Counted from the first letter of the stretch, positions 8,255-61,111 are shown. The stretch is DNA of 64,000 bases from Candidatus Parcubacteria bacterium (GCA_023132155.1 JAGLYP010000002.1:6598-70597); one strand, 5' to 3'. Program-made: numbers and translations. Notes: generated from the letters alone by a model not told the origin.

Positions 8255-9622
8255 ATGTCTAATAATATTAAAAAAATCAATAAAAACAGGGATATTTTAT
8301 TGAGGCGCGCGCTTTGGGTAATTGTGCCGTTTTTGCTTGCTATTTTAGCGCTGGATAAGGTTAGCTTAATAACAATTTTTGGAATATTAGCAGTTTATTT
8401 GATTTTTGTCTTTGCCAAAGATAAAATTTGGTATCTATTGGTATTGGCGGTGCCAAGCCTTGTTTTTGGAAAAATTTTATATATTCCAATTACCAATACC
8501 TGGGTATACGAAGCTCGTTTCGCGGAAGTCTTTTTGGGCATGGTTTTAATAGTTTTTATTTCGGATGTATTTTTAAATAATAAAATAATAAATTTAAAAT
8601 TTGATAAGATCAGTTTTGGGCTGCTTATTTTTTTAATCGCGTCGCTTGCTTCAATATATTCGGCGCTTGACTTTCGTTTGTTTGTTTTTGCTTTAAAAAC
8701 AATTGTTTTTAGTTTTTTAGCTTATTTTTTGGCTTTGAATTTGCTTGATAATAAAAAGAAAGTCTTTTATTTTTTATACAGCATGGCAATAACCGGAATG
8801 ATTCTTAGCGCGCAAATTTTTTGGAAATTTTATCAGATGGGCTTTTCAATTGATTTCTTTTTTAATCGTTCCGATATTTTAATTCCAATCGGGCCGATTG
8901 CCACGACCGCGGCAATTTTAACTTTTTTAGCGCCGATACTTTTGGCTTTTTATTTTCAGCTTAATGATTTGAATAAATGGAAGCCGTTTGTGTTTTTGGG
9001 ATTTTTTATGAGTTTTTTCGCGGTTTTTTTAACTTTAGGAAAAGGCGCGATTATCAGTTTGTTTTTCGGCTTGTTTGTGGTTTTTTGCATGCATAAGCAG
9101 AAAAGAATTGCTTATATTTTATTTTTTATGTGGTTCGCGGCCTTGCTGTATTTCGGTTTTCAGCCCTATTTTGCCGGATTGTTCGAGCGGTTTAAAACTA
9201 CCTTGGTTGATGTCAACACGGAGTTTAGAGTGAAAGAGTATAAGTTAAGCTTTGATTTAATTAAGAATCATCCATGGATGGGGGTTGGCGTCGGCCAGCA
9301 ATTGTATTATTATAAAAAGATTCTTAATCAAGAGCAAGGTAATTTTGTAAATAATTTTATTTTGCAAACCGTAATTGATCTAGGGCTAGCCGGCCTGTTT
9401 TTGATGTTATTTATAATTAAAAATATTATAAAAAAAATAAAAGATGTTTGGCGCGCGGGCGGGAAAGAATCGGTTTTAGTTATCGGTTTTATTGCCGCAT
9501 TTGCCGCCGCGTTTTTAAACGGTATGGTAGAAGTAACGATTTATGCCTTGCCTTACGCGATTGTTTTTTGGTTAACGCTTGGAGTTTTTGAAAATGCCGC
9601 GGAAAGGGAGGAAAAACCATGA
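8255..9622 (+). CDS. O-antigen ligase/polymerase-like (Wzy_C-type) polytopic membrane protein
   Basis: 455 aa with about 10-12 hydrophobic helices and a periplasmic loop carrying HPWMGVGVGQ, typical of the O-antigen ligase family. ATGA overlap with the next gene. Confidence 0.65.
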   Translation: MSNNIKKINKNRDILLRRALWVIVPFLLAILALDKVSLITIFGILAVYLIFVFAKDKIWYLLVLAVPSLVFGKILYIPITNTWVYEARFAEVFLGMVLIVFISDVFLNNKIINLKFDKISFGLLIFLIASLASIYSALDFRLFVFALKTIVFSFLAYFLALNLLDNKKKVFYFLYSMAITGMILSAQIFWKFYQMGFSIDFFFNRSDILIPIGPIATTAAILTFLAPILLAFYFQLNDLNKWKPFVFLGFFMSFFAVFLTLGKGAIISLFFGLFVVFCMHKQKRIAYILFFMWFAALLYFGFQPYFAGLFERFKTTLVDVNTEFRVKEYKLSFDLIKNHPWMGVGVGQQLYYYKKILNQEQGNFVNNFILQTVIDLGLAGLFLMLFIIKNIIKKIKDVWRAGGKESVLVIGFIAAFAAAFLNGMVEVTIYALPYAIVFWLTLGVFENAAEREEKP

Positions 9623-10461
9623 AAAAATTATCAGTTATAATAATTAATTACGGCACGGCAGAGATGACGGAAAAGGTTATCAAGAATTTTATTGTTAAAG
9701 AAAAGTCTTTAAGTTATGAAATAATTTTGATTGATAATAAGTCTGTTGAAAAAATTAATGAAAAGAAATTTTTGGATTTGGGCGCGGAATTAATTAAGAA
9801 TCAAGAGAACCTAGGCTTTGCCAAAGCTGTTAATCAAGGAATAAAACGCGCCCAAGGAGAGTATATTTTATTATTGAACTCCGATGTATTTATTAAGGAA
9901 AACGCTATTTCTAAAATGATTGAATATTTAGAAAGCGATTTGGACGCGGCAATAGCCGCCCCGAAAATATTTTTCCCGAATGGAAGAGTACAAATTAGCG
10001 CCGGAAGATTTCCAAATTTAACAAGGGAATTTTTGCGTTTGTTTAAGCTGTATAATCTAATTCCAAAATCCACTTTAATGAGTAAAAATGAAATGGAAAG
10101 CCATCGCGAGCGCGAAATTGATTGGGTAAGCGGCGCGTGCATGCTTTTTAAACGGGAGTTGACGGACAAAATCGGTTTTTTTGATGAAAAATATTTTTTA
10201 GGGGTTGAAGATATTGATTTTTGCTATCGCGCGCGAAAAAAAGGCTTTAAAAATATTTATTATCCAATGTCAACAGTAATCCATTATCACGGATTTTCGT
10301 CCGGCGGAACTGCGGCAATCAAACGCATTAAATATGATCGAGATGGCATGATATATTTTATGCGAAAGCATTTCCCGAAAAAAGTTTTTAGTTGGATATT
10401 AATCAAACTAATGCATGATTTGAAAATTTTTTTTCTTTTCTGTCATTCCTGTAAAAGTTAA
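9619..10461 (+). CDS. family 2 glycosyltransferase
   Basis: N-terminal SVIIINYG, then IDN.S and LLLNSD (DxD region), then EDIDFCYRA. The last codons run into a GTCATTCCTG word resembling the repeat-element terminus. Confidence 0.8.
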   Translation: MKKLSVIIINYGTAEMTEKVIKNFIVKEKSLSYEIILIDNKSVEKINEKKFLDLGAELIKNQENLGFAKAVNQGIKRAQGEYILLLNSDVFIKENAISKMIEYLESDLDAAIAAPKIFFPNGRVQISAGRFPNLTREFLRLFKLYNLIPKSTLMSKNEMESHREREIDWVSGACMLFKRELTDKIGFFDEKYFLGVEDIDFCYRARKKGFKNIYYPMSTVIHYHGFSSGGTAAIKRIKYDRDGMIYFMRKHFPKKVFSWILIKLMHDLKIFFLFCHSCKS

Positions 10462-10782: not shown

Positions 10783-11781
10783 ATGAAATTAAAAATAACA
10801 CAAAAAAAATATACCCCCAAAGACGCGACAATCGCGGTTACTTATTTTTGCAATTCGCGCTGTAGAATGTGCAATATTTGGCAGGATAAAAATCCGCGGA
10901 GTTTGAAAAAGGAAGATTTTTATAACTTAAGTCCTGATTTAAGATATATTAATTTATCAGGCGGAGAGCCTTTTCTGCATCCTGAATTGCCGGAAATTGT
11001 CCGTATTATAAATAAAGTCAGTCCAAAAGCGAAAATTATCATATCCAGCAATGGATTGGCAACCGGCTTGATTATAAAAACGATGAAAGAGATTAAAAAA
11101 ATTGATTCGCGTGTTGGTATTAGAATTTCAATTGACGGATTGCGAAAAACCCATGATCGTATGCGTGGGATTGATGGAATATATGAGGCTGCTATGAAGA
11201 CGCTTGCCGGTCTTAAGATAATCGGCATTAAAAATTTAGGATTAAGTTTTACGATTATGAATGAAAATGCTGATGAATTGAAAGATATATATAATTTGTC
11301 AAAAGATTTGCAAATTGAATTGGCTTTGGCCTTGGTGCAGAATTCTGAAATATATTTTACAAAAAATGACAACCAGTTAACTTATATTGATAAAGTTAAG
11401 AGCGGCCTGAATTATATTATTAAGCAAGAATTAAAAAGCGCGAACCCAAAGCGCTGGGGGCGAGCTTTTTATGATTACGGTTTGCTAAAATACGCGGAAA
11501 GCAAAGAACGCCTGCTAAAAAGCGGCGCCGCTTACGATTCTTTGTTTATTGATTCCTTGGGAAATGTTTATCCCAGTAATTTGATAAATTTGAAATTAGG
11601 CAGCATCAAAAAAGACAAGCTGGACAATATCTGGCGGTCTGGCAAAGCGCAAGCGGTTCGCGATAAAATAGAAGCGGAAAATATCACGGAAAGCTGGATA
11701 ATTTGTACAATCCGCGGCGAGATGAAAAAAAATATATTTAAGGTTTTGTTTTGGGTGTTAAAGAATAAGTTATGTGTGTAA
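10783..11781 (+). CDS. radical SAM protein in glycan locus
   Basis: CNSRCRMCNIW (CxxxCxxC) near the N-terminus, then GGEPFL. The track starts at TTG 10723; I prefer ATG 10783 because 10723 lies just after the repeat element. The start is uncertain. Confidence 0.7.
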   Translation: MKLKITQKKYTPKDATIAVTYFCNSRCRMCNIWQDKNPRSLKKEDFYNLSPDLRYINLSGGEPFLHPELPEIVRIINKVSPKAKIIISSNGLATGLIIKTMKEIKKIDSRVGIRISIDGLRKTHDRMRGIDGIYEAAMKTLAGLKIIGIKNLGLSFTIMNENADELKDIYNLSKDLQIELALALVQNSEIYFTKNDNQLTYIDKVKSGLNYIIKQELKSANPKRWGRAFYDYGLLKYAESKERLLKSGAAYDSLFIDSLGNVYPSNLINLKLGSIKKDKLDNIWRSGKAQAVRDKIEAENITESWIICTIRGEMKKNIFKVLFWVLKNKLCV

Positions 11782-11878: not shown

Positions 11879-13087
11879 ATGAAGATATTGCAAATAAATA
11901 AATTTTATTATTTTAAAGGCGGAAGTGAGCGCTATCTTTTTGATTTGTCTGAAATTTTAAAGAAAAACGGTCATAAAATTGTGCCGTTTTCTATGCAAAA
12001 TGACAATAATTTGCCAAGCAATCACGCGAAGTATTTTATTAAAGAAGTTGGTTTAAATAAATTTAATTTAATTAATATTTTTAAATTTTTTTATAATTAC
12101 GATGCCGTTAACAGGCTGAAAAAATTAATTAAAGACGAAAAGCCGGATATCGCGCATTTGCATAACATCGCCCATCAGCTAAGTCCCGCGATTATTAGAG
12201 TTTTGAAGCGGCACAATATTCCCATCGTACAGACTTTGCATGATTATAAATTAATCTGCCCCAATGCCAAACTTTTTGTTGATAATAAAAATTGCGAAAA
12301 GTGCCGCGGTGGCAAATATTATAATTGCCTGAAAAACAAATGCATGAAAGATTCTTATTTAAAAAGTTTTATGGCTGTGCTTGAGGCGTATTTATGGAAC
12401 CGTTTAATAAAAATATATGACAGGGTTGATGTGTTTATCGCGCCTAGCAAGTTTATGCGGGATAAGTGCGTTGATTTCGGAGTTCCAGCCGAGAAAATAA
12501 GAGTTGCTTATAATTTTTATGACGCACCCGTTAACAATCAGATGGAATTAGCAAGTGATGAAAAATATGTTTTGTATTACGGAAGATTGTCAAAAGAAAA
12601 GGGCGTGGATGTTTTACTGGAAGCAATGAAAAGCGTTAAACACGGAATTAAATTAAAAATAGTCGGTCCGGGGCCGGAATATAAAAATTTGGAAGAAAAA
12701 ATCAGCAAATTCAATTTGCAAGACAGGGTTTTTCTATTGGGTCCGAAATATGGCGGGGATTTGCAAACAATTATTAATCAAGCAATAGCCGTTATTGTGC
12801 CGTCGCTTTGGCCGGAGAATATGCCTTATTGCCTTTTAGAGCCGATGGCAATCGGCAAGATTGTGATTGTTTCCCGCGTAGGCGGTATGACCGAGATTAT
12901 TAAAAATCAAAAAAACGGTTTTTCTTTTGAGCCGGAAAATTTTCAGGCTTTAACAAAAATAATAAATAATTTGCAAAATTTTAATCAAGAAGAGATTGGA
13001 AAAAGAGCTATGGAAACAATAAAAAGATTAAATTCAAAAAAGCATTATCAGGAAATTTTAAAAATTTATTCTGAGTTGAGAAGATAA
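11879..13087 (+). CDS. family 4 (GT-B) glycosyltransferase
   Basis: MKILQINKFYYFKGGSE at the N-terminus. C-terminal E(x7)E-type region LLEPMAIGKIVIVSRVGGMTEII. Confidence 0.8.
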   Translation: MKILQINKFYYFKGGSERYLFDLSEILKKNGHKIVPFSMQNDNNLPSNHAKYFIKEVGLNKFNLINIFKFFYNYDAVNRLKKLIKDEKPDIAHLHNIAHQLSPAIIRVLKRHNIPIVQTLHDYKLICPNAKLFVDNKNCEKCRGGKYYNCLKNKCMKDSYLKSFMAVLEAYLWNRLIKIYDRVDVFIAPSKFMRDKCVDFGVPAEKIRVAYNFYDAPVNNQMELASDEKYVLYYGRLSKEKGVDVLLEAMKSVKHGIKLKIVGPGPEYKNLEEKISKFNLQDRVFLLGPKYGGDLQTIINQAIAVIVPSLWPENMPYCLLEPMAIGKIVIVSRVGGMTEIIKNQKNGFSFEPENFQALTKIINNLQNFNQEEIGKRAMETIKRLNSKKHYQEILKIYSELRR

Positions 13088-27800: not shown

Positions 27801-27840
27801 TAGGGAACAAAAATTTTTGTTCTCAAATATAAAAACAACC

Positions 27841-27880
27841 CCGCCCCTCGCGAGGGGCGGGGTTGTTTTTTTTAAGAATA
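27841..27880 (+). terminator. perfect 40-bp palindrome / terminator, family P3
   Basis: AAAAACAACCCCGCCCCTCG | CGAGGGGCGGGGTTGTTTTT followed by a T-run. Confidence 0.85.
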
Positions 27881-29924: not shown

Positions 29925-32693
29925 ATGCAAAATTTGAAGAAAAATAATATTGGCAATTTTAATCAAGACGCGCGGCCGTCTCGTTTTATGCTGGATTTGA
30001 AGGCAAAGCAAAGAAAGCAGAAAGCAGAAGAAACGGAATTAAAAAAAAGCAAGAAGCCAATTAATAATTTTTTTGAGCAGATAAACAAATTTAAAGAGTT
30101 TAGCCAAAATAAATTTTGTAAAAGCAATAAAGAATTAAATCAAAAGAAAACGGCAGAGTCTGAAGAAAAAATAAAAAAGCCAAAAACATTTGCTTATAAA
30201 AAACGCAAAAATTTAATTTTAAATTATTTTAAAAATTTTCACCTTAGACAAGGAAGACATCTTAAGCGCATGGCGTTTTTTCCTTTTTTTAAGGTATTTT
30301 TTATTGCGATTAAAACAAGTTTCAAGGTTTGCCACGCGGCCGGTTTTTCAGTTTTGTTTATAGCGCGTTTTATTTTTTTCTTTTTTAAGAAAATATTTTC
30401 CGCTGTTGCCGGTTTTAAGAAAAACAAAAAACAAAAAATAAAAACCGTTGATATTAATATTGAGAGAATTTTCAAGCATAGCAAAAAGCCTAAGAGTAGA
30501 ATATCTAATATTTTTAAGCCACGTAAAGCCGGCTATTTTATTCCAAAAAGGTTTGGACATCTAAATTTTAAGCCCTTTTTAGCCTTTTTGTTAATTTTAA
30601 TTGTTTTAACCCTGCCTTTTAAAGCTTTAATTTTTTACAGTGGAATAAGCAATTTAAAAGACAGGGTTTTTGGAATTTCAGCTAACGCGGTTGAGGATAT
30701 TAAATCCGCTTCAAGCTACGCTATTGAGCGAGAGTTTGAAAAAGCGGATAGCGGTTTTACCGAAGCAAGCCGTAATTTTTTAGAAGCTAAAAGCGAACTT
30801 GATGAAATAAGTGTTTTTTTAGATACAATGGGCGCGATTATTCCAAATAAAGAATTAAAACTGGCAAAAGAAGCGGATTTATTTTTAGAGGCAGGCAGTT
30901 TAAGCGCGGAAATTTGCGCTGAATTAAGCCGCGCTTTAAACGTATTTAATGAGCCTGAGGCAAGCGTGAAAAAGATTTTTGACAATTTTCAGGATTCCGG
31001 CAGAAATTTAAGCTTAAAAACATCTCAGTTTGCCGCGGTTATTAAAGAAATTAACGCGAAAGCGCTCCCCGAAGAATATCAGGCGCTTTTTAATGATATT
31101 AAGAAAAAGATTGTTTTGATTGATGAGAATTTAAATGAATTTTTAAGCATAATTGACTTGGCGCGAATATTTTTAGGCTTTGAGCGGGATCAAAGATATC
31201 TTTTTGTTTTTCAAAATAATGCCGAGCTAAGAGCAAGCGGCGGTTTTATCGGCAGTTTTGCCTTGGTTGATTTCAGTAATGGCGAAATAAAAAATATGGA
31301 AGTGCCGGGTGGCGGCAGTTATGACACTAAAGGCGGTTTGTATGAAAAGATTATCGCGCCCGAACCTTTACATTTGGTTGATCCGCAGTGGCATTTTTGG
31401 GATGCAAATTGGTGGCCGGACTGGCCGACGAGTGCCGCAAAATTAATGTGGTTTTATGAAAAAAGCGGCGGTCCCACAGTTGACGGCATTATTAGCTTTA
31501 CTCCTACGGTTTTGGAAAAATTGTTGGAAACTATCGGAGAAATTGATATGACGGAAGAGTATGGTATTGTGTTTAACTCTGAAAATGTTTGGCAGATTTT
31601 GCAAGTTATATCAGAACAAAAAGAAAAAGATCATCCTGATTATGCCAAGTACGCGAAATTATATAAAGATATAATCGGCGAAGAAAAATTCATGTTGCTT
31701 GAACAAAAAAATGATACAGTTTCTAGCAGCGCTAATATAGTCAGAGGCACGGAAGAAATAATTAGAAAGCGGCATGAGCCGAAAAAAATAATCGGAGATT
31801 TAATGGAGAAGATTGTTTTTAAATCAAAAAATGGATTAAACAAGGATATGTTTTTCGGTTTAGTTGATGTATTTTTAAGCAATTTAAATGAAAAGCATTT
31901 TATGCTTTATTTTGTTGATGGCGCGCTGCAAAAAAAGATTATTGAATATGGCTGGTCCGGAGAAATGAAAAAAAGCAATTGGGATTATTTAATGGTAATA
32001 AATACCAATATTGCCGGCGCTAAAACCGATAAAGTTATCAAGGAAGAAATTTCGCACAAAAGCAGTGTTGCCGAAGACGGTACCATAACCAATACAGTAG
32101 CAATTACACGCAGGCATACCGGTTACGCCGGTGATCCGATACTTGGGGTAAGAAATGTTGATTGGTTGAGAGTTTACGCGCCTTTAGGCAGTAAATTGCT
32201 TTCCGCGAGCGGATTTAGCGCGCCTGACAAGGAGTATTTTAATAATCCGGAAGCATATTGGCAACAGGACGCTTATATCTCGGCGACAGAGGGCAGGGGA
32301 GTGGTTGATAAACAGTCGGGCACGAAAATTTATCAGGAAAAATATAAAACAGTTTTCGCGAATTGGTGCATGGTTAATCCTGGTGAAACGATTGTTATCC
32401 GTTTGAAATATGTTCTGCCTTTTAAAATGCGAATCGCGCAAAAAGAGAATAATTTGCAAAATAAGCTTAATCAATTTTTAAATCCTGAACAAAAAGATTT
32501 ATGTCCGCACGCGCTTTTAGCGCAAAAACAGCCGGGATCAATCGGCAGTAAATTTAAAAGCGAGCTTGTTTTGCCAAGTAATTTTACAATCAAATGGCAA
32601 TACGGGCAAGATGCGAGTAAACAAAATTCATGGCTTATTTCCGATGTTTTAAATACGGATAAATATTGGGCGGCTTTGTTGGAAATAAATTAA
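29925..32693 (+). CDS. DUF4012-like membrane-anchored protein
   Basis: Basic low-complexity N-terminus and TM helices. The motif FVFQNNAELRASGGFIGSFALVD is recalled as the DUF4012 signature. Confidence 0.55.
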   Translation: MQNLKKNNIGNFNQDARPSRFMLDLKAKQRKQKAEETELKKSKKPINNFFEQINKFKEFSQNKFCKSNKELNQKKTAESEEKIKKPKTFAYKKRKNLILNYFKNFHLRQGRHLKRMAFFPFFKVFFIAIKTSFKVCHAAGFSVLFIARFIFFFFKKIFSAVAGFKKNKKQKIKTVDINIERIFKHSKKPKSRISNIFKPRKAGYFIPKRFGHLNFKPFLAFLLILIVLTLPFKALIFYSGISNLKDRVFGISANAVEDIKSASSYAIEREFEKADSGFTEASRNFLEAKSELDEISVFLDTMGAIIPNKELKLAKEADLFLEAGSLSAEICAELSRALNVFNEPEASVKKIFDNFQDSGRNLSLKTSQFAAVIKEINAKALPEEYQALFNDIKKKIVLIDENLNEFLSIIDLARIFLGFERDQRYLFVFQNNAELRASGGFIGSFALVDFSNGEIKNMEVPGGGSYDTKGGLYEKIIAPEPLHLVDPQWHFWDANWWPDWPTSAAKLMWFYEKSGGPTVDGIISFTPTVLEKLLETIGEIDMTEEYGIVFNSENVWQILQVISEQKEKDHPDYAKYAKLYKDIIGEEKFMLLEQKNDTVSSSANIVRGTEEIIRKRHEPKKIIGDLMEKIVFKSKNGLNKDMFFGLVDVFLSNLNEKHFMLYFVDGALQKKIIEYGWSGEMKKSNWDYLMVINTNIAGAKTDKVIKEEISHKSSVAEDGTITNTVAITRRHTGYAGDPILGVRNVDWLRVYAPLGSKLLSASGFSAPDKEYFNNPEAYWQQDAYISATEGRGVVDKQSGTKIYQEKYKTVFANWCMVNPGETIVIRLKYVLPFKMRIAQKENNLQNKLNQFLNPEQKDLCPHALLAQKQPGSIGSKFKSELVLPSNFTIKWQYGQDASKQNSWLISDVLNTDKYWAALLEIN

Positions 32694-32701
32694 CAATTAA
32701 T

Positions 32702-32734
32702 AATTAAGAATTAATTATTAATTCTTAATTTTTA
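32702..32734 (+). terminator. AT-only hairpin plus T-run
   Basis: AATTAAGAATTAAT t ATTAATTCTTAATT then TTTT. Confidence 0.4.
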
Positions 32735-32745
32735 ATCAAAGTAAC

Positions 32746-45688: not shown

Positions 45689-46354
45689 CTATTTATTATT
45701 TCCATTCCCATTCCCATTCCCCATGGAAATAATTGTCTGTTTGAATAGATTGGCAAGCTCTATTGGAATTTTTTTTATTTTTTCTTGTATCAGTTCGGAA
45801 ACCCAAAGCTCAAGCGGCCCGTCCTCTCTCAAATAAATTTGATAGAGTTTGTTGTAAATTTCCGAATTGTATTCTTGAAGTACGCAGAAAAGGATTTCTC
45901 GCAATTGATTAATTGTTTCTTCAATTTCAAAAAATTCATCTTCTTTTGCCGCGAAAATTTGATTCATATCCAATAAATCAATAATGCGCTTATCATCCAT
46001 GTCTTTTTCATTTCCATTCTGCGCGTCTAACACCTCAATTTTTTTTTCTATCTCCTCTGATTCTCTGATTAGGCAAACGGCTTTTTTGTTTAGTTTTTCT
46101 AATTTTTGACAGACTTTAGCCACTTCCGGGTGCAGTTTGCTCCAATCGCGGGTTGCAGGTTTAATTAAAAATCGTGTAATCGAAATTTCATCTTGGCCAT
46201 TAAGGGTAATTGCCAAGGTGGTGCTGGTCGTCCGCAGGTCTTTAATACTTTCTTTGGTTTTGAGTTTGACGTCAGTAAACTCAGTCAAGTCATGTCCGTT
46301 TAAGATGAGGTTAAAGATAGTGCTTGGGTTGCTTACGGAAACGTTTTGTATCAT
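45689..46354 (-). CDS. hypothetical protein with coiled-coil middle and (GN)n tail
   Basis: 221-aa ORF with GGAG upstream. The C-terminus MGNGNGNGNNK is encoded by an imperfect hexanucleotide repeat (GGGAAT-type units on the coding strand, about 45703-45726). Confidence 0.5.
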   Translation of the reverse strand: MIQNVSVSNPSTIFNLILNGHDLTEFTDVKLKTKESIKDLRTTSTTLAITLNGQDEISITRFLIKPATRDWSKLHPEVAKVCQKLEKLNKKAVCLIRESEEIEKKIEVLDAQNGNEKDMDDKRIIDLLDMNQIFAAKEDEFFEIEETINQLREILFCVLQEYNSEIYNKLYQIYLREDGPLELWVSELIQEKIKKIPIELANLFKQTIISMGNGNGNGNNK

Positions 46355-52133: not shown

Positions 52134-52187
52134 GAGACTAAGTCGCTACCCCGCCTCTCGCGAGAGGCGGGGTAGCGACTTAGTCTC
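52134..52187. repeat. perfect 54-bp palindrome, family P3, in the mraY-ftsW spacer
   Basis: GAGACTAAGTCGCTACCCCGCCTCTCG | CGAGAGGCGGGGTAGCGACTTAGTCTC. Confidence 0.95.
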
Positions 52188-55037: not shown

Positions 55038-56339
55038 ATGAAAAATTGCAGCTTAATTATAAAAGGAAAATATGTTTTAACAATGGATGACAAAATGTCT
55101 GTTTTTAATGATGGGGTTGTGGCGGTTGATGATGATGAAATAATAGCAATTGGCGAAAAGGAAATTTTAGAAAAGTACAAGAGTGAAAAAATTATTGATG
55201 CGGGAAACAGTATTATTATGCCGGGGCTGATTAATACGCATACGCACGCGGCCATGGCGTATTTTCGCGGGTTAGCTGATGATTTGCCTTTGCCGGTATG
55301 GTTGGAAAAGCATATTTGGCCGGCTGAGGCTAAATATGTTAATAAGAATTTTGTTAAAAAGGCTTCAGCGCTTGCTTGTTTGGAAATGATAAAATCGGGA
55401 GTTACTTGTTTTAATGATATGTATTTTTTTGAACAAGAAACCGCTTCGGTTGCAAGCCGGATCGGAATGCGCGCTTTAATCGGCGAAGTAATATTGGATT
55501 TTCATACGCCAAGCTGTAAAACTCCAAAAGAAGCGCTGAAAAAAACAGAAGAAATGATATTAAAATATAAAGACAGCGAATTAATTTCAGTGGCAGTCGC
55601 GCCTCATTCTATCTATACTTGTTCAGAGGAAAATTTAAGCAAATCGAAAGAATTAGCAGACAAATATTCAATTAATTTGCATATACATATAAGCGAAACT
55701 GAAAAAGAAAATAAAGATTGTTTGAGAGATAATGAAAAAAGTCCGGTTAAATATTTGGATGAGCTGGGAATTTTGAATAATAAAACAATTGCCGCGCACA
55801 GTATTTGGCTTGATGATGAAGATATTGAGATATATAAAAATAGGCAGGTAAAAATAAGCCATTGCCCGATTAGCAATATGAAATTAGCCTCCGGTATTAT
55901 GAATTTTAAAAAAATGCGTGAATCGGGTTTGGTAATCAGTTTGGGAACGGACGGCGCGGCAAGCAATAATACTTTGGATTTATTTTCTGAAATGCGCGCT
56001 TGCGCTTTATTGCATAAAGTAAACAATTTGAATCCGGAAATAGCCTCTGCAACTGAAATCGTAAAAGCCGCGACAATTAACGGCGCCAAGATCTTGGGAA
56101 TGGATGATAAAATCGGTTCGCTTGAAATTGGCAAAAAAGCTGATATAATAACTGTTAATTTGAATAAGCCTCATTTGACCCCGATTTATAATCCATGTTC
56201 GCATTTGGTTTACGCGGTTAATTTAGCGGATGTGGAGAATGTGATTGTTAACGGCAAGCTGATTATGCAAAACAGGGAAGTTTTGGGTTTGGATGAGGAT
56301 AGAATATTAGAAGAGGCATGTAAGTTCAAAAGGAACTAA
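55038..56339 (+). CDS. mtaD: amidohydrolase, 5-methylthioadenosine/S-adenosylhomocysteine deaminase-like
   Basis: MPGLINTHTHAAMAYFRGLADDLPLPVWLEKHIWPAE, HISET, and GTDGAASNN. The last two codons and the stop lie in palindrome P1b. Confidence 0.75.
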   Translation: MKNCSLIIKGKYVLTMDDKMSVFNDGVVAVDDDEIIAIGEKEILEKYKSEKIIDAGNSIIMPGLINTHTHAAMAYFRGLADDLPLPVWLEKHIWPAEAKYVNKNFVKKASALACLEMIKSGVTCFNDMYFFEQETASVASRIGMRALIGEVILDFHTPSCKTPKEALKKTEEMILKYKDSELISVAVAPHSIYTCSEENLSKSKELADKYSINLHIHISETEKENKDCLRDNEKSPVKYLDELGILNNKTIAAHSIWLDDEDIEIYKNRQVKISHCPISNMKLASGIMNFKKMRESGLVISLGTDGAASNNTLDLFSEMRACALLHKVNNLNPEIASATEIVKAATINGAKILGMDDKIGSLEIGKKADIITVNLNKPHLTPIYNPCSHLVYAVNLADVENVIVNGKLIMQNREVLGLDEDRILEEACKFKRN

Positions 56340-56414
56340 GTACCTACGATTTTTTTTGTTAACCTGGATTTTAAAATCCAGGTTAACAAAAAAAATCGTA
56401 GGTACTTAGTTCCT
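56331..56414. repeat. perfect 84-bp palindrome, family P1 (copy b)
   Basis: AGGAACTAAGTACCTACGATTTTTTTTGTTAACCTGGATTTT | AAAATCCAGGTTAACAAAAAAAATCGTAGGTACTTAGTTCCT. Fills the whole mtaD-murC spacer, ending 2 nt before the murC ATG. Confidence 0.95.
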
Positions 56415-56416
56415 TC

Positions 56417-57885: not shown

Positions 57886-59214
57886 ATGACATACCATATA
57901 ATCACAATCGGTTGCCAGATGAATAAGAGCGATTCGGAGCGGATTGCCGCTTGTTTGGAGGATATGGGTTATCGCGAGTCTGAAAATAGGAATCAGGCTG
58001 ATTTGGTAGTACTTACGACTTGCGGTGTTCGGCAATCAGCTGAAGATCGGATTTATGGTTTGGTTCCGAAAATTAAAAAAGAAAATAAGGACGTAAAAAT
58101 ATTGCTAACCGGATGTTTATCTGAACGGAAAGATGTTATTAAAAGATTAAAAGAAAAAATTGATATTTGGCTGCCGGTAAATCAAATTTCAAATTTAAAA
58201 CAAGTATTAATTGATTCAGGTTTTAAGAATTCAGAAATTGAAGCTTGCGATTATTTGAAAATAAAACCGAAATATACTTCAAAATTTAGCGCGTTTGTGC
58301 CGATTGGCAATGGCTGTGATAATTTTTGCGCTTATTGCGTTGTGCCTTACGCGCGCGGACGCGAAGTTTATCGGGATGTGGAAGAGATTTTGAATGAAGT
58401 GGAAAGTTTGATTAAAAAAGGATATAAAGAAATAATTTTGATTGCGCAGAATGTAAATAGCTATTATTCTGAAATTACAAATTACAAATTACAAATTACA
58501 AATAAATCACAAATATTAAATTCAAAATATTTAAGATTTTTTGATTTACTAAAACTGGTAAACAGTATCCCCGGGGATTTTTGGGTGCGGTTTGCGAGCA
58601 GTCATCCGAAAGATATGAGTGATGATTTGATTTTGGCGATTTTAGAATGTGAAAAAGTTTGTAAGCACATCCATTTGCCGGCGCAGTCAGGGGATAACGG
58701 AGTTTTAAAGTCTATGAATAGGAAATATAAAATTGAGCATTATTTGGATTTGATTAGAAAAATTAAAGATAACACAAAAAGCAAATTGCCGGTAGCGCTT
58801 ACCACTGATATTATTGTCGGTTTTCCCGGTGAGACAGAAGAACAGTTTGGCAATACTATAAAATTATTTGAAAAAGTAAAATATGACATGGCCTACATCG
58901 CGCGGTATAGTCCGCGTTACGGAACAGCTGCGGAAAAGATAAAGGATAATGTTGGGGCGGATGAGAAAAAAAGAAGGGAAGGAGAGTTAATGAAAGTATT
59001 AAGAAAAACCGCGCTGAAAAATAATCAAAAATATTCAGGCAGAACGGTTAAAGTTTTGGCTGAAGGCAAAAATAAGAAAGGAATTTTGTTTGGAAAAACC
59101 GAAACAAATAAAACCGTTAAATTTTGGGGGGATAAAAATTTTGTTGGAAAATTTGTGAGTGTTAATATAACAGCAGTGGAAGATTTTAGTTTGAGCGGTG
59201 ATTTACAAAAATAA
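57886..59214 (+). CDS. miaB: tRNA-2-methylthio-N6-dimethylallyladenosine synthase (MTTase family)
   Basis: IGCQMNKSDSE (UPF0004 Cys). Radical SAM motif GCDNFCAYCVVP. C-terminal TRAM domain. Confidence 0.85.
   Translation: MTYHIITIGCQMNKSDSERIAACLEDMGYRESENRNQADLVVLTTCGVRQSAEDRIYGLVPKIKKENKDVKILLTGCLSERKDVIKRLKEKIDIWLPVNQISNLKQVLIDSGFKNSEIEACDYLKIKPKYTSKFSAFVPIGNGCDNFCAYCVVPYARGREVYRDVEEILNEVESLIKKGYKEIILIAQNVNSYYSEITNYKLQITNKSQILNSKYLRFFDLLKLVNSIPGDFWVRFASSHPKDMSDDLILAILECEKVCKHIHLPAQSGDNGVLKSMNRKYKIEHYLDLIRKIKDNTKSKLPVALTTDIIVGFPGETEEQFGNTIKLFEKVKYDMAYIARYSPRYGTAAEKIKDNVGADEKKRREGELMKVLRKTALKNNQKYSGRTVKVLAEGKNKKGILFGKTETNKTVKFWGDKNFVGKFVSVNITAVEDFSLSGDLQK
58472..58499 (+). repeat. (AAATTAC)x4 heptanucleotide tandem repeat inside miaB
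   Basis: Read directly. Encodes part of EITNYKLQITNK within an apparent insertion relative to MiaB as I recall it. Confidence 0.9.
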
Positions 59215-60121: not shown

Positions 60122-61111
60122 ATGAAAAAAAAGAAAAAAGTGGTGGTGATTGTCGGAACTACTGCCAGCGGTAAGACCGCGTTAGCCGTGGATTTAGCCT
60201 ATAAATTCGGCGGAGAAGTGATTTCAGCCGATTCCCGGCAGGTTTATAAATATATGGATATTGGTACAGGTAAAGATTTGCAAGAATATATTTTAGAATT
60301 TCCAATTTCCAATTTCCAATTTCCAATTTTAAAATTTAAAAATAAAATTAAGATTAAAATTCCACATCATTTGTTAGATGTTGTTTCGCCAAATACAAGT
60401 TTTGATTTGGTGAAATGGTTAAAAAAGGCAAAAATTTCTATAAATGATATTTTAGATAGGGGGCGATTACCGATTGTTGCCGGCGGTACAGGCCTTTACG
60501 CGCAGGCTCTGGTGGATAATTATAATTTAAGTAAATATGGAGAAGACAAAAAATTACGGGAAAAATTGGAGAAGAAAGAAAAGACAGAATTATTTAAAAT
60601 ATTATTAAAATTAGATGAAAAATTTGCAAAAAAGCTTAATAATAGCGAAAAAAACAATAAACGAAGATTAATTCGATATATAGAAATATGCAGGCAGGGA
60701 GAGAAAATTAAAAATAAAAACTTAAATAAAAACAATGAATATGAATTTTTGCTTATTGGCATTACTTGGCCGCGGGAGATTCTTAGAAAGAAAATATACA
60801 AAAGATTAATAGAGCGTTTAGAAAAAGAAGATATGATCGGGGAGGTTATTCGGCTGCATAAAGATAAAAAAGTAAGCTGGAAACGGCTTGAATCTTTTGG
60901 CTTGGAGTATAGATTTATTTCCCAGTATTTGCGAAAAAAACTAAGTTACGATGAAATGGTGGAGAAATTAAATATTGCTATCGGCCAGTTTGCCAAAAAG
61001 CAGATTACTTGGCTGCGGCGATGGGAAAAGCAAGGCGCTAAAATTTATTGGGTTAAAAAAAGACAAGAAGCTGAAAAATTATGTAAAAATTTTTTGCGCA
61101 TTGACAATTAA
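60122..61111 (+). CDS. miaA: tRNA dimethylallyltransferase
   Basis: VVIVGTTASGKTALAVDLA, ISADSRQVYKYMDIGTGK, PHHLLD and GGTGLY. Confidence 0.9.
   Translation: MKKKKKVVVIVGTTASGKTALAVDLAYKFGGEVISADSRQVYKYMDIGTGKDLQEYILEFPISNFQFPILKFKNKIKIKIPHHLLDVVSPNTSFDLVKWLKKAKISINDILDRGRLPIVAGGTGLYAQALVDNYNLSKYGEDKKLREKLEKKEKTELFKILLKLDEKFAKKLNNSEKNNKRRLIRYIEICRQGEKIKNKNLNKNNEYEFLLIGITWPREILRKKIYKRLIERLEKEDMIGEVIRLHKDKKVSWKRLESFGLEYRFISQYLRKKLSYDEMVEKLNIAIGQFAKKQITWLRRWEKQGAKIYWVKKRQEAEKLCKNFLRIDN
60297..60324 (+). repeat. (AATTTCC)x4 heptanucleotide tandem repeat inside miaA
   Basis: Read directly. Encodes EFPISNFQFPI within an insert of about 20 aa between the GTGK and PHHL motifs. Confidence 0.9.

Follow-up and report, generated by a model that had tools for sequence, protein, structure and literature searches.

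The window, a 64,000-nt stretch of DNA from a Candidatus Parcubacteria bacterium, carries two genes of the ms2i6A37 pathway on its + strand. The upstream gene, miaB (57886-59214, +), encodes a radical-SAM methylthiotransferase of 442 aa with the Pfam domains UPF0004, Radical_SAM and TRAM, and it closely matches a solved MiaB structure (PDB 7mjv, Bacteroides uniformis; E = 5e-80 over residues 5-439). The downstream gene, miaA (60122-61111, +), encodes a tRNA dimethylallyltransferase of 329 aa. Its product matches the family profile PF01715 (IPPT) over positions 1-242 of 243 (E = 3e-53), contains the P-loop and the invariant DIGT(G/A)K and (P)(H/Y)HL motifs, and has the structural relatives 2qgn (Bacillus halodurans MiaA), 3d3q and 2zm5 in the PDB. 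The two genes are separated by 907 bp, in agreement with the roughly 900 bp given in an earlier note on this DNA, and a Cu-oxidase_4 (YfiH-like) gene lies between them on the opposite strand.

Each gene contains a perfect heptanucleotide simple sequence repeat (SSR) inside a variable loop. The miaA array, (AATTTCC) x4.7, occupies 60297-60329 (+) as 4.71 copies over 33 nt without a mismatch; it is in frame and encodes (E)FPISNFQFPI, as the earlier note had read from four perfect units and a partial fifth. The alignments place it in a 28-aa loop between DIGTGK and IPHHLLD (60275-60358, +), where an AT-rich, lysine-rich tail, LKFKNKIKIK, follows the SSR on its 3′ side. Aligned to 2qgn, the window's MiaA has 20 extra residues between DIGTAK...EEM and (G)VPHHLID, which confirms the insertion of about 20 aa proposed earlier. 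The AlphaFold model of MiaA (mean pLDDT 81) renders the insert as an extended beta-hairpin with strands at residues 57-61 and 75-79, at a mean pLDDT of 56-76 in 10-residue blocks over residues 41-80. The miaB array, (AAATTAC) x4.6, occupies 58472-58503 (+) as 4.57 copies, all matches perfect, and encodes ITNYKLQITN. It lies in a 24-aa variable loop after AQNVNSY (58465-58536, +) that is 13 residues longer than that of 7mjv, the insertion starting directly after QNVNSY. A comparison with relatives draws attention to another site in miaB, a linker near aa 100, where the window has a short heptamer, (TCAAATT) x2.7 (58182-58200, +). Relatives carry (AATTTTC) x4.4 or (AAATTGG) x4 there, a natural 7-nt ON/OFF polymorphism maps to this site, and the window's short heptamer may seed one more array.

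In length, the arrays of miaA and miaB exceed all other perfect tandem repeats of the 64-kb window, in which the other perfect repeats of at least three copies and a unit of at least 5 nt are one hexamer (x3.3) and AATTATT x3 between genes. When the window was simulated 300 times with a first-order Markov model, not one perfect period-7 run of at least 24 nt appeared; runs of at least 21 nt were expected at 0.007 per simulation, as compared to 3 observed. Both arrays are thus tandem head-to-tail 7-nt units longer than composition predicts, and the earlier judgment that a different heptamer in each gene (AATTTCC and AAATTAC) is hard to call chance is upheld by the simulations. Assembly GCA_030631305.1 (contig DAOVLK010000001.1) and a second assembly (ENA record) are 100% identical over 3,790 nt, repeats included. 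We regard chance or an assembly artefact as vanishingly improbable: the low-complexity, AT-rich context is the sole point in its favor, and it is opposed by the simulations, by the exact agreement of the two assemblies and by the many independent assemblies with homologous arrays.

The window holds several other repeats. A hexamer repeat at 45698-45721, (ATTCCC) x4 on the + strand, encodes the C-terminal GNGNGN tail of an ORF on the opposite strand (45689-46354, -); it is in frame and, unlike the heptamers, has a triplet-multiple unit. Period-7 hits by Tandem Repeats Finder at 32688-32736 proved to be an intergenic AT-rich inverted repeat without an array. A perfect 86-nt palindrome (56330-56415) overlaps an amidohydrolase stop codon and ends just before the murC start, and there are further long perfect palindromes of 54 nt (52134-52187) and 40 nt (27831-27870); these may be bidirectional terminators or mobile hairpins.

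Period-7 repeats across the clade

When a 7-nt unit is read through all three frames it yields a 7-aa periodic peptide, and we counted, in the best 120 homologues of each Mia protein, exact runs of at least 9 aa that are encodable only by DNA of a given period. Period-7 runs occurred in 25 of 120 MiaA homologues (none at periods 4 and 5, 3 at period 8, 2 at period 10) and in 32 of 120 MiaB homologues (none at periods 4, 5 and 10, 2 at period 8). MiaA has two sites with such runs (about aa 58-72 and 195-200) and MiaB has four (about aa 100-130, 180-207, 305-320 and 408-430), and the periodic peptides in the loops were diverse, including FPISNFQ, IPNSKFQ, IPNPKSQ, ITNYKLQ, ITNYELR, KSKIKNQ, KVKSQKS, IGNWKLE and ECRMPNA. 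Period-7 runs were present in 3 of 120 RlmN proteins and in 2 of 150 MurC proteins, the latter a rough control only, as its library was clustered at 50% identity and its hits were more divergent (34-66% identity). The Mia proteins differ from these controls with Fisher p = 9e-6 to 6e-8, values to be read with the differing clade composition of the control sets in mind.

We then turn to DNA. Relatives were sought by scanning collections of genome and metagenome contigs, where the matches listed were mostly distant MiaA without inserts and L083-L087 were close, and the DNA of other relatives was fetched protein by protein. Across 18 loci with a MiaA at least 50% identical to that of the window (222 kb), we counted 14 perfect period-7 runs of 24 nt or more within mia genes (36 kb) vs 4 outside them (186 kb), a comparison in which some loci had been picked because their proteins had the pattern. 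Runs of this length with periods of 4-6 or 8-10 were absent from the same 222 kb. Among the 13 loci retrieved regardless of repeats, there were 4 arrays in mia genes vs 1 outside (p = 0.018). The density in mia genes, about 0.2 arrays per kb, is at least that of intergenic DNA, where the 222 kb gave 2 arrays. Heptamers are the characteristic long SSR of this lineage and occur in other genes, with miaA and miaB as strong hot spots; as at contingency loci, the tract is over-represented and retained at particular genes. The earlier note had named, as the finding that would speak against its proposal, heptamers that are common and randomly spread in coding DNA and invariant in copy number. One half of this picture is accurate, since the long SSRs of this lineage are essentially all heptamers; the other half is not, since they are concentrated roughly 10-fold in miaA and miaB.

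Outside mia genes, L163 has (AATTTTG) x5.1 within a gene that fuses thymidylate kinase and dCTP deaminase (8447-8482), and two arrays in the intergenic DNA that separates its L11 and nusG genes (12902-12926 and 12963-12986); in L166, (GCAGAAA) x4.9 lies close to the beginning of a 492-aa gene without annotation (9813-9846).

The loops that host the mia arrays are hypervariable. In alignments of 120 homologues, a comparison that the earlier note suggested for MiaA, the loop lengths are 7-52 aa for MiaA and 6-72 aa for MiaB, with K, N, Q, S, T and I over-represented among the inserted residues. The same loops also accept GC-rich palindromes of 16-37 nt in relatives, so that the earlier idea of tolerated low-complexity loop expansions agrees well with what we find. 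Perfect in-frame palindromes lie in the MiaA loops of L166 (12248-12283, 36 nt) and L164 (AGACGCGCCGCGGCGCGTCT, 11378-11397) and in a Mia loop of L085 (1028-1064); the 16-nt palindrome TCCGCCAGCTGGCGGA is present in both miaA and miaB of L163 (2625-2640 and 4863-4878) and in miaB of L167 (4761-4776). That one genome has it in both genes points to a small, dispersed palindromic element. Different kinds of small insertions are found at the same places, which argues for loop tolerance as a major cause of the hot spots. In some relatives MiaA and MiaB are fused into one protein (P0204, 756 aa; P0220, 770 aa), and in one assembly such a fusion seems to be split into parts of 364 and 424 aa (P0077/P0264).

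The repeat units turn over between genomes. The miaA gene carries (AAATTCC) x4.6 in L085, (AAATTCC) x3.6 and (AAATTCA) x3.4 in L163, (AAATCCC) x4.6 and (AAATTCA) x3.4 in L167, and (AATTTCC) x3.7 in L165, while miaB carries (CACGCAA) x4.3 in L165, (AAATTAC) x4.6 in L163 and (AATTTTC) x4.4 in both L167 and L083. A single site can therefore hold AATTTCC, AAATTCC, AAATCCC, CACGCAA, AAATTGG or other units, depending on the genome, and arrays across all DNA examined span 3.3-5.1 units. Whole-unit changes in copy number are found between related genomes: the window and L165 have the miaA unit AATTTCC in common at x4.7 vs x3.7, the frame being restored downstream, and a one-unit difference separates the miaB arrays of L169 and L168. 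The nearest relatives of the window (75-84% identity) lack its units and have degenerate AATYARG units, GC palindromes or no insert. As judged from these sequences, the pattern fits birth, homogenisation and decay of arrays by slippage.

One comparison fits less well. The window's miaB array and its flank are identical to those of L163 over 34 of 34 nt, at a DNA identity of 67% for the gene and 49% for its third positions, and although the L163 MiaB protein is only 63% identical to the window's. This identity exceeds what simple neutral turnover would give and leaves some room for constraint. Much of it can be explained if the 7-nt unit evolved in concert or if the arrays expanded in parallel from one common seed. 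Within the relatives' loci, we found no unit or motif common to the miaA and miaB arrays of one genome; a protein that would bind both arrays is therefore not supported.

Frame arithmetic and natural OFF alleles

The gain or loss of units at either array shifts the reading frame, as at contingency loci. By computation, a shift of one or two units in either direction ends MiaA after 67-74 aa and MiaB after 201-215 aa, and a change of three units keeps the frame in both genes. Only three-unit steps remain in frame because 7 is not a multiple of 3, and the present 4.6-4.7 copies are therefore ON alleles, with 329- and 442-aa products. The same arithmetic largely explains why arrays cluster at about 4-5 units, as a seed of 1.x units has its first in-frame expansion at 4.x. 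The coincidence stressed in the earlier note, exactly four copies in each gene, is real as an observation (x4.7 and x4.6), but the match in copy number is largely a product of the frame.

We searched for OFF alleles by checking the members of 90%-identity protein clusters for split genes. In the cluster of one Falkowbacteria MiaB (P0169, 487 aa), one contig encodes halves of 142 and 362 aa instead. The intact gene (L169) has (AAATTGG) x4 and the split gene (L168) has x3; the two contigs, from two samples of one study, otherwise agree over 4,482 nt without a mismatch. Another cluster (P0155) has its change where, by homology, the window's miaB array lies: L171 carries two copies of a 32-nt higher-order heptamer unit there, and L170 has lost one copy, splitting miaB into 223 and 218 aa. 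Apart from this deletion and one substitution, the two contigs are the same. Because of these two pairs, it can be said that repeat-mediated ON/OFF polymorphism of miaB exists in nature, in two relatives of the window's organism.

The search had a different outcome for miaA. No OFF allele at a heptamer array was found among the 90%-identity clusters examined, and the split miaA alleles that did occur (P0292 with P0294, P0278 with P0279, and P0298) have frameshifts at a poly-A run at KPNKK and near GGTGLY. These splits at non-repeat positions hint either at frequent inactivation of mia genes in this clade or at assembly errors in these places. Several other array-bearing 90%-identity clusters showed no variation at their arrays, and most 90%-identity clusters differed in start codons only. 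In a separate search for frameshifted genes, over loci with 166 miaA and 33 miaB matches, the sole frameshift was in miaB of L008, a metagenome-assembled genome labelled Saccharibacteria, where the defect lies away from any array; the matches (939-1998) fall in two frames, lack residues of about 253-347 and probably represent a degraded gene. In the window's organism, every assembly on record encodes identical proteins and no copy-number variation was found. ON and OFF alleles across samples are thus known for miaB of two relatives, and switching in the window's organism itself is something that we infer.

Explanations for the arrays

We think it reasonably probable that the arrays are slippage-made, frameshift-prone heptamer SSRs in tolerant loops of dispensable genes. 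Replication slippage would make and remodel each SSR, in a Falkowbacteria-like candidate-phyla clade where heptamers are the dominant long SSR class. The arrays sit in DNA for insertion-tolerant surface loops of conserved enzymes, in MiaA the tip of a beta-hairpin between DIGTGK and IPHH and in MiaB the loop that follows QNVNSY. A gain or loss of one or two units would leave a truncated, inactive protein, and out-of-frame intermediates would survive if the mia genes are dispensable. The outcome would be two genes of the ms2i6A37 pathway that are prone to frameshift and occasionally OFF in nature. On this account, the pile-up of heptamers in miaA and miaB would come from unusually permissive loops and from genes dispensable enough to tolerate it. 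Mutants of miaA and miaB are viable in model bacteria, and it is for this reason that we infer dispensability as a cause of the enrichment. The arrays are short (3.3-5.1 units), and slippage rates may therefore be modest. A model based purely on tolerance does not obviously predict that array density in mia genes equals or exceeds that of intergenic DNA.

In a second reading, the arrays are selected contingency loci that would toggle tRNA A37 among its unmodified, i6A and ms2i6A forms and reprogram decoding in some cells, a possibility that we hold tentatively and lean against. Selection normally works against non-triplet SSRs in coding DNA, yet they are enriched about 10-fold in these two genes clade-wide; perfect tracts persist or re-form despite saturated synonymous divergence; out-of-frame states halt translation at once; and there are natural miaB alleles, one pair differing by a single unit in otherwise identical genomes and another by a 32-nt deletion. 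However, tracts of 4-5 units are far shorter than classical contingency tracts, the miaA splits lie apart from its array, the loops are shared with unrelated GC palindromes, which argues for tolerance rather than selection for mutability, and the miaA and miaB units are unrelated. Because of this last fact, nothing indicates coordination. The coordinated phase-variable control of A37 hypermodification raised in the earlier note stands insofar as a one-unit change truncates either protein and relatives have miaB OFF alleles; it is weakened by units that differ between genes and genomes and by the identical assemblies of the window's organism, and we consider it rather doubtful. A version that dispenses with coordination, a 'tRNA phasevarion' in which independent heptamer switches in miaA and miaB give three stochastic A37 states (unmodified, i6A and ms2i6A) and selection keeps the tracts slippery clade-wide, strikes us as unlikely; if true, it would amount to bet-hedging on decoding fidelity or on phage/host interactions. 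Our literature search found no paper linking miaA or miaB to phase variation, and none on heptamer repeats in Patescibacteria.

Two other explanations concern the inserted material itself. The arrays could be footprints or cargo of mobile elements, left as target-site duplications by repeated insertion and excision or carried by a small heptamer-bearing element. The peptide FPISNFQ does recur: the window's MiaA has it, and so does the MiaB portion of the fusion P0204. KFQIPNS is found in both proteins, and since TCCGCCAGCTGGCGGA is present in several mia genes, some dispersed small elements do enter these loops. Against this origin for the heptamers, units vary between sites as well as between genomes, whole units are gained or lost in place, and the arrays lack terminal repeats, a transposase and constant flanks. 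The palindromes interrupt arrays rather than delimit them, as in L167, where a 30-nt GC-rich insert divides the array 2 + 2. With nothing element-like flanking the arrays, the footprint idea of the earlier note does not hold for the heptamers, and we rate it very improbable. The insert might instead be functional, either through its peptide, for example by contacting tRNA, or through the mRNA repeat as a sensor whose many UNN codons, decoded by tRNAs that MiaA and MiaB modify, would feed back on expression. The conservation of the miaB array and flank between the window and L163, above the gene average, and the hairpin-like MiaA insert, modelled at moderate confidence, are consistent with a role. 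The inserts nevertheless range from 0 to about 60 aa, are unrelated in sequence among close relatives, and lack the window's units in relatives 75-84% identical. The sensor was rejected as a candidate, as the amino acids with UNN-only codons (F, Y, C and W) are depleted in the inserts (ratios 0.82 and 0.57) and the UNN codons of a heptamer simply equal its number of T's. Whichever of the three frames is read, a 7-nt repeat yields its peptide, which is therefore a by-product of the DNA. Consequently, we find a functional insert quite improbable, and slippage in tolerant loops of dispensable genes remains our preferred explanation.

Comparison with known repeat systems

In the work by Mrazek, Guo and Shah (2007), as outlined in PMC4679880 and PMC4692102, heptamers are described as the most abundant longer-unit SSRs of prokaryotes, with lineage-specific abundance, and their excess is proposed to result from polymerase slippage, about 7 nt matching the polymerase contact. 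The same account (Mrazek et al. 2007, via PMC4679880 and PMC4692102) describes repeats within genes as mostly having triplet-multiple units, and it is because of this description that in-frame heptamers in conserved enzymes stand out. The mia arrays resemble the long heptanucleotide SSRs reported there in being perfect head-to-tail 7-nt units longer than chance would give; they differ in lying in frame in two conserved housekeeping genes, in the same loops clade-wide. Intergenic heptamer families are known from Calothrix (tandem heptanucleotides), from Xanthomonas and Nostoc (GGGAATC-type; PMC4692102) and from Beggiatoaceae (TAACTGA; PMC4679880). They share with the mia arrays the 7-nt period, a few to tens of tandem units and a patchy phylogenetic distribution, but each of those families has one dominant unit per genome located between genes, whereas the mia arrays have many A/T-rich units in coding loops.

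Repeats of 7 bp in the hmw promoters of H. influenzae cause phase variation (PMC8262952). The SSR contingency loci of Haemophilus, Neisseria and Campylobacter have, like the mia arrays, a non-triplet tract in which the gain or loss of a unit flips the frame, and in miaB of a relative natural ON and OFF alleles differ by one such unit. The mia tracts differ in having only 4-5 units, in targeting cytoplasmic tRNA-modification enzymes as opposed to surface or restriction-modification genes, and in belonging to environmental, episymbiont-type bacteria. In phasevarions, phase-variable Mod/HsdS DNA methyltransferases control regulons (PMC5909438). If mia switching is real, it would be alike in that one SSR in a nucleic-acid-modifying enzyme alters the expression of many genes, and unlike in that the substrate would be tRNA A37, acting on translation, and not DNA, acting on transcription. 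SSR phase variation, known from surface and restriction genes in pathogens, would then reach the tRNA epitranscriptome of ultra-small bacteria from the environment, and would provide a natural case of translation fidelity as a bet-hedged trait. The neutral reading has its own consequences: conserved enzymes can retain non-triplet heptamer SSRs in frame, these SSRs mark the indel-tolerant loops of MiaA and MiaB, and they explain split or 'partial' mia calls in metagenome-assembled genomes, which annotators should expect.

Rickettsia palindromic elements, small repeats inserted in frame into genes, are tolerated in the loops of conserved proteins. By analogy, the GC-rich palindromes in the MiaA and MiaB loops of relatives appear to resemble them, unlike the heptamer arrays, which are non-palindromic and form no single dispersed family. 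Taken together, frameshift switches made of SSRs and long heptanucleotide SSRs are both known; what is new is their place in the tRNA-modification genes of candidate phyla.
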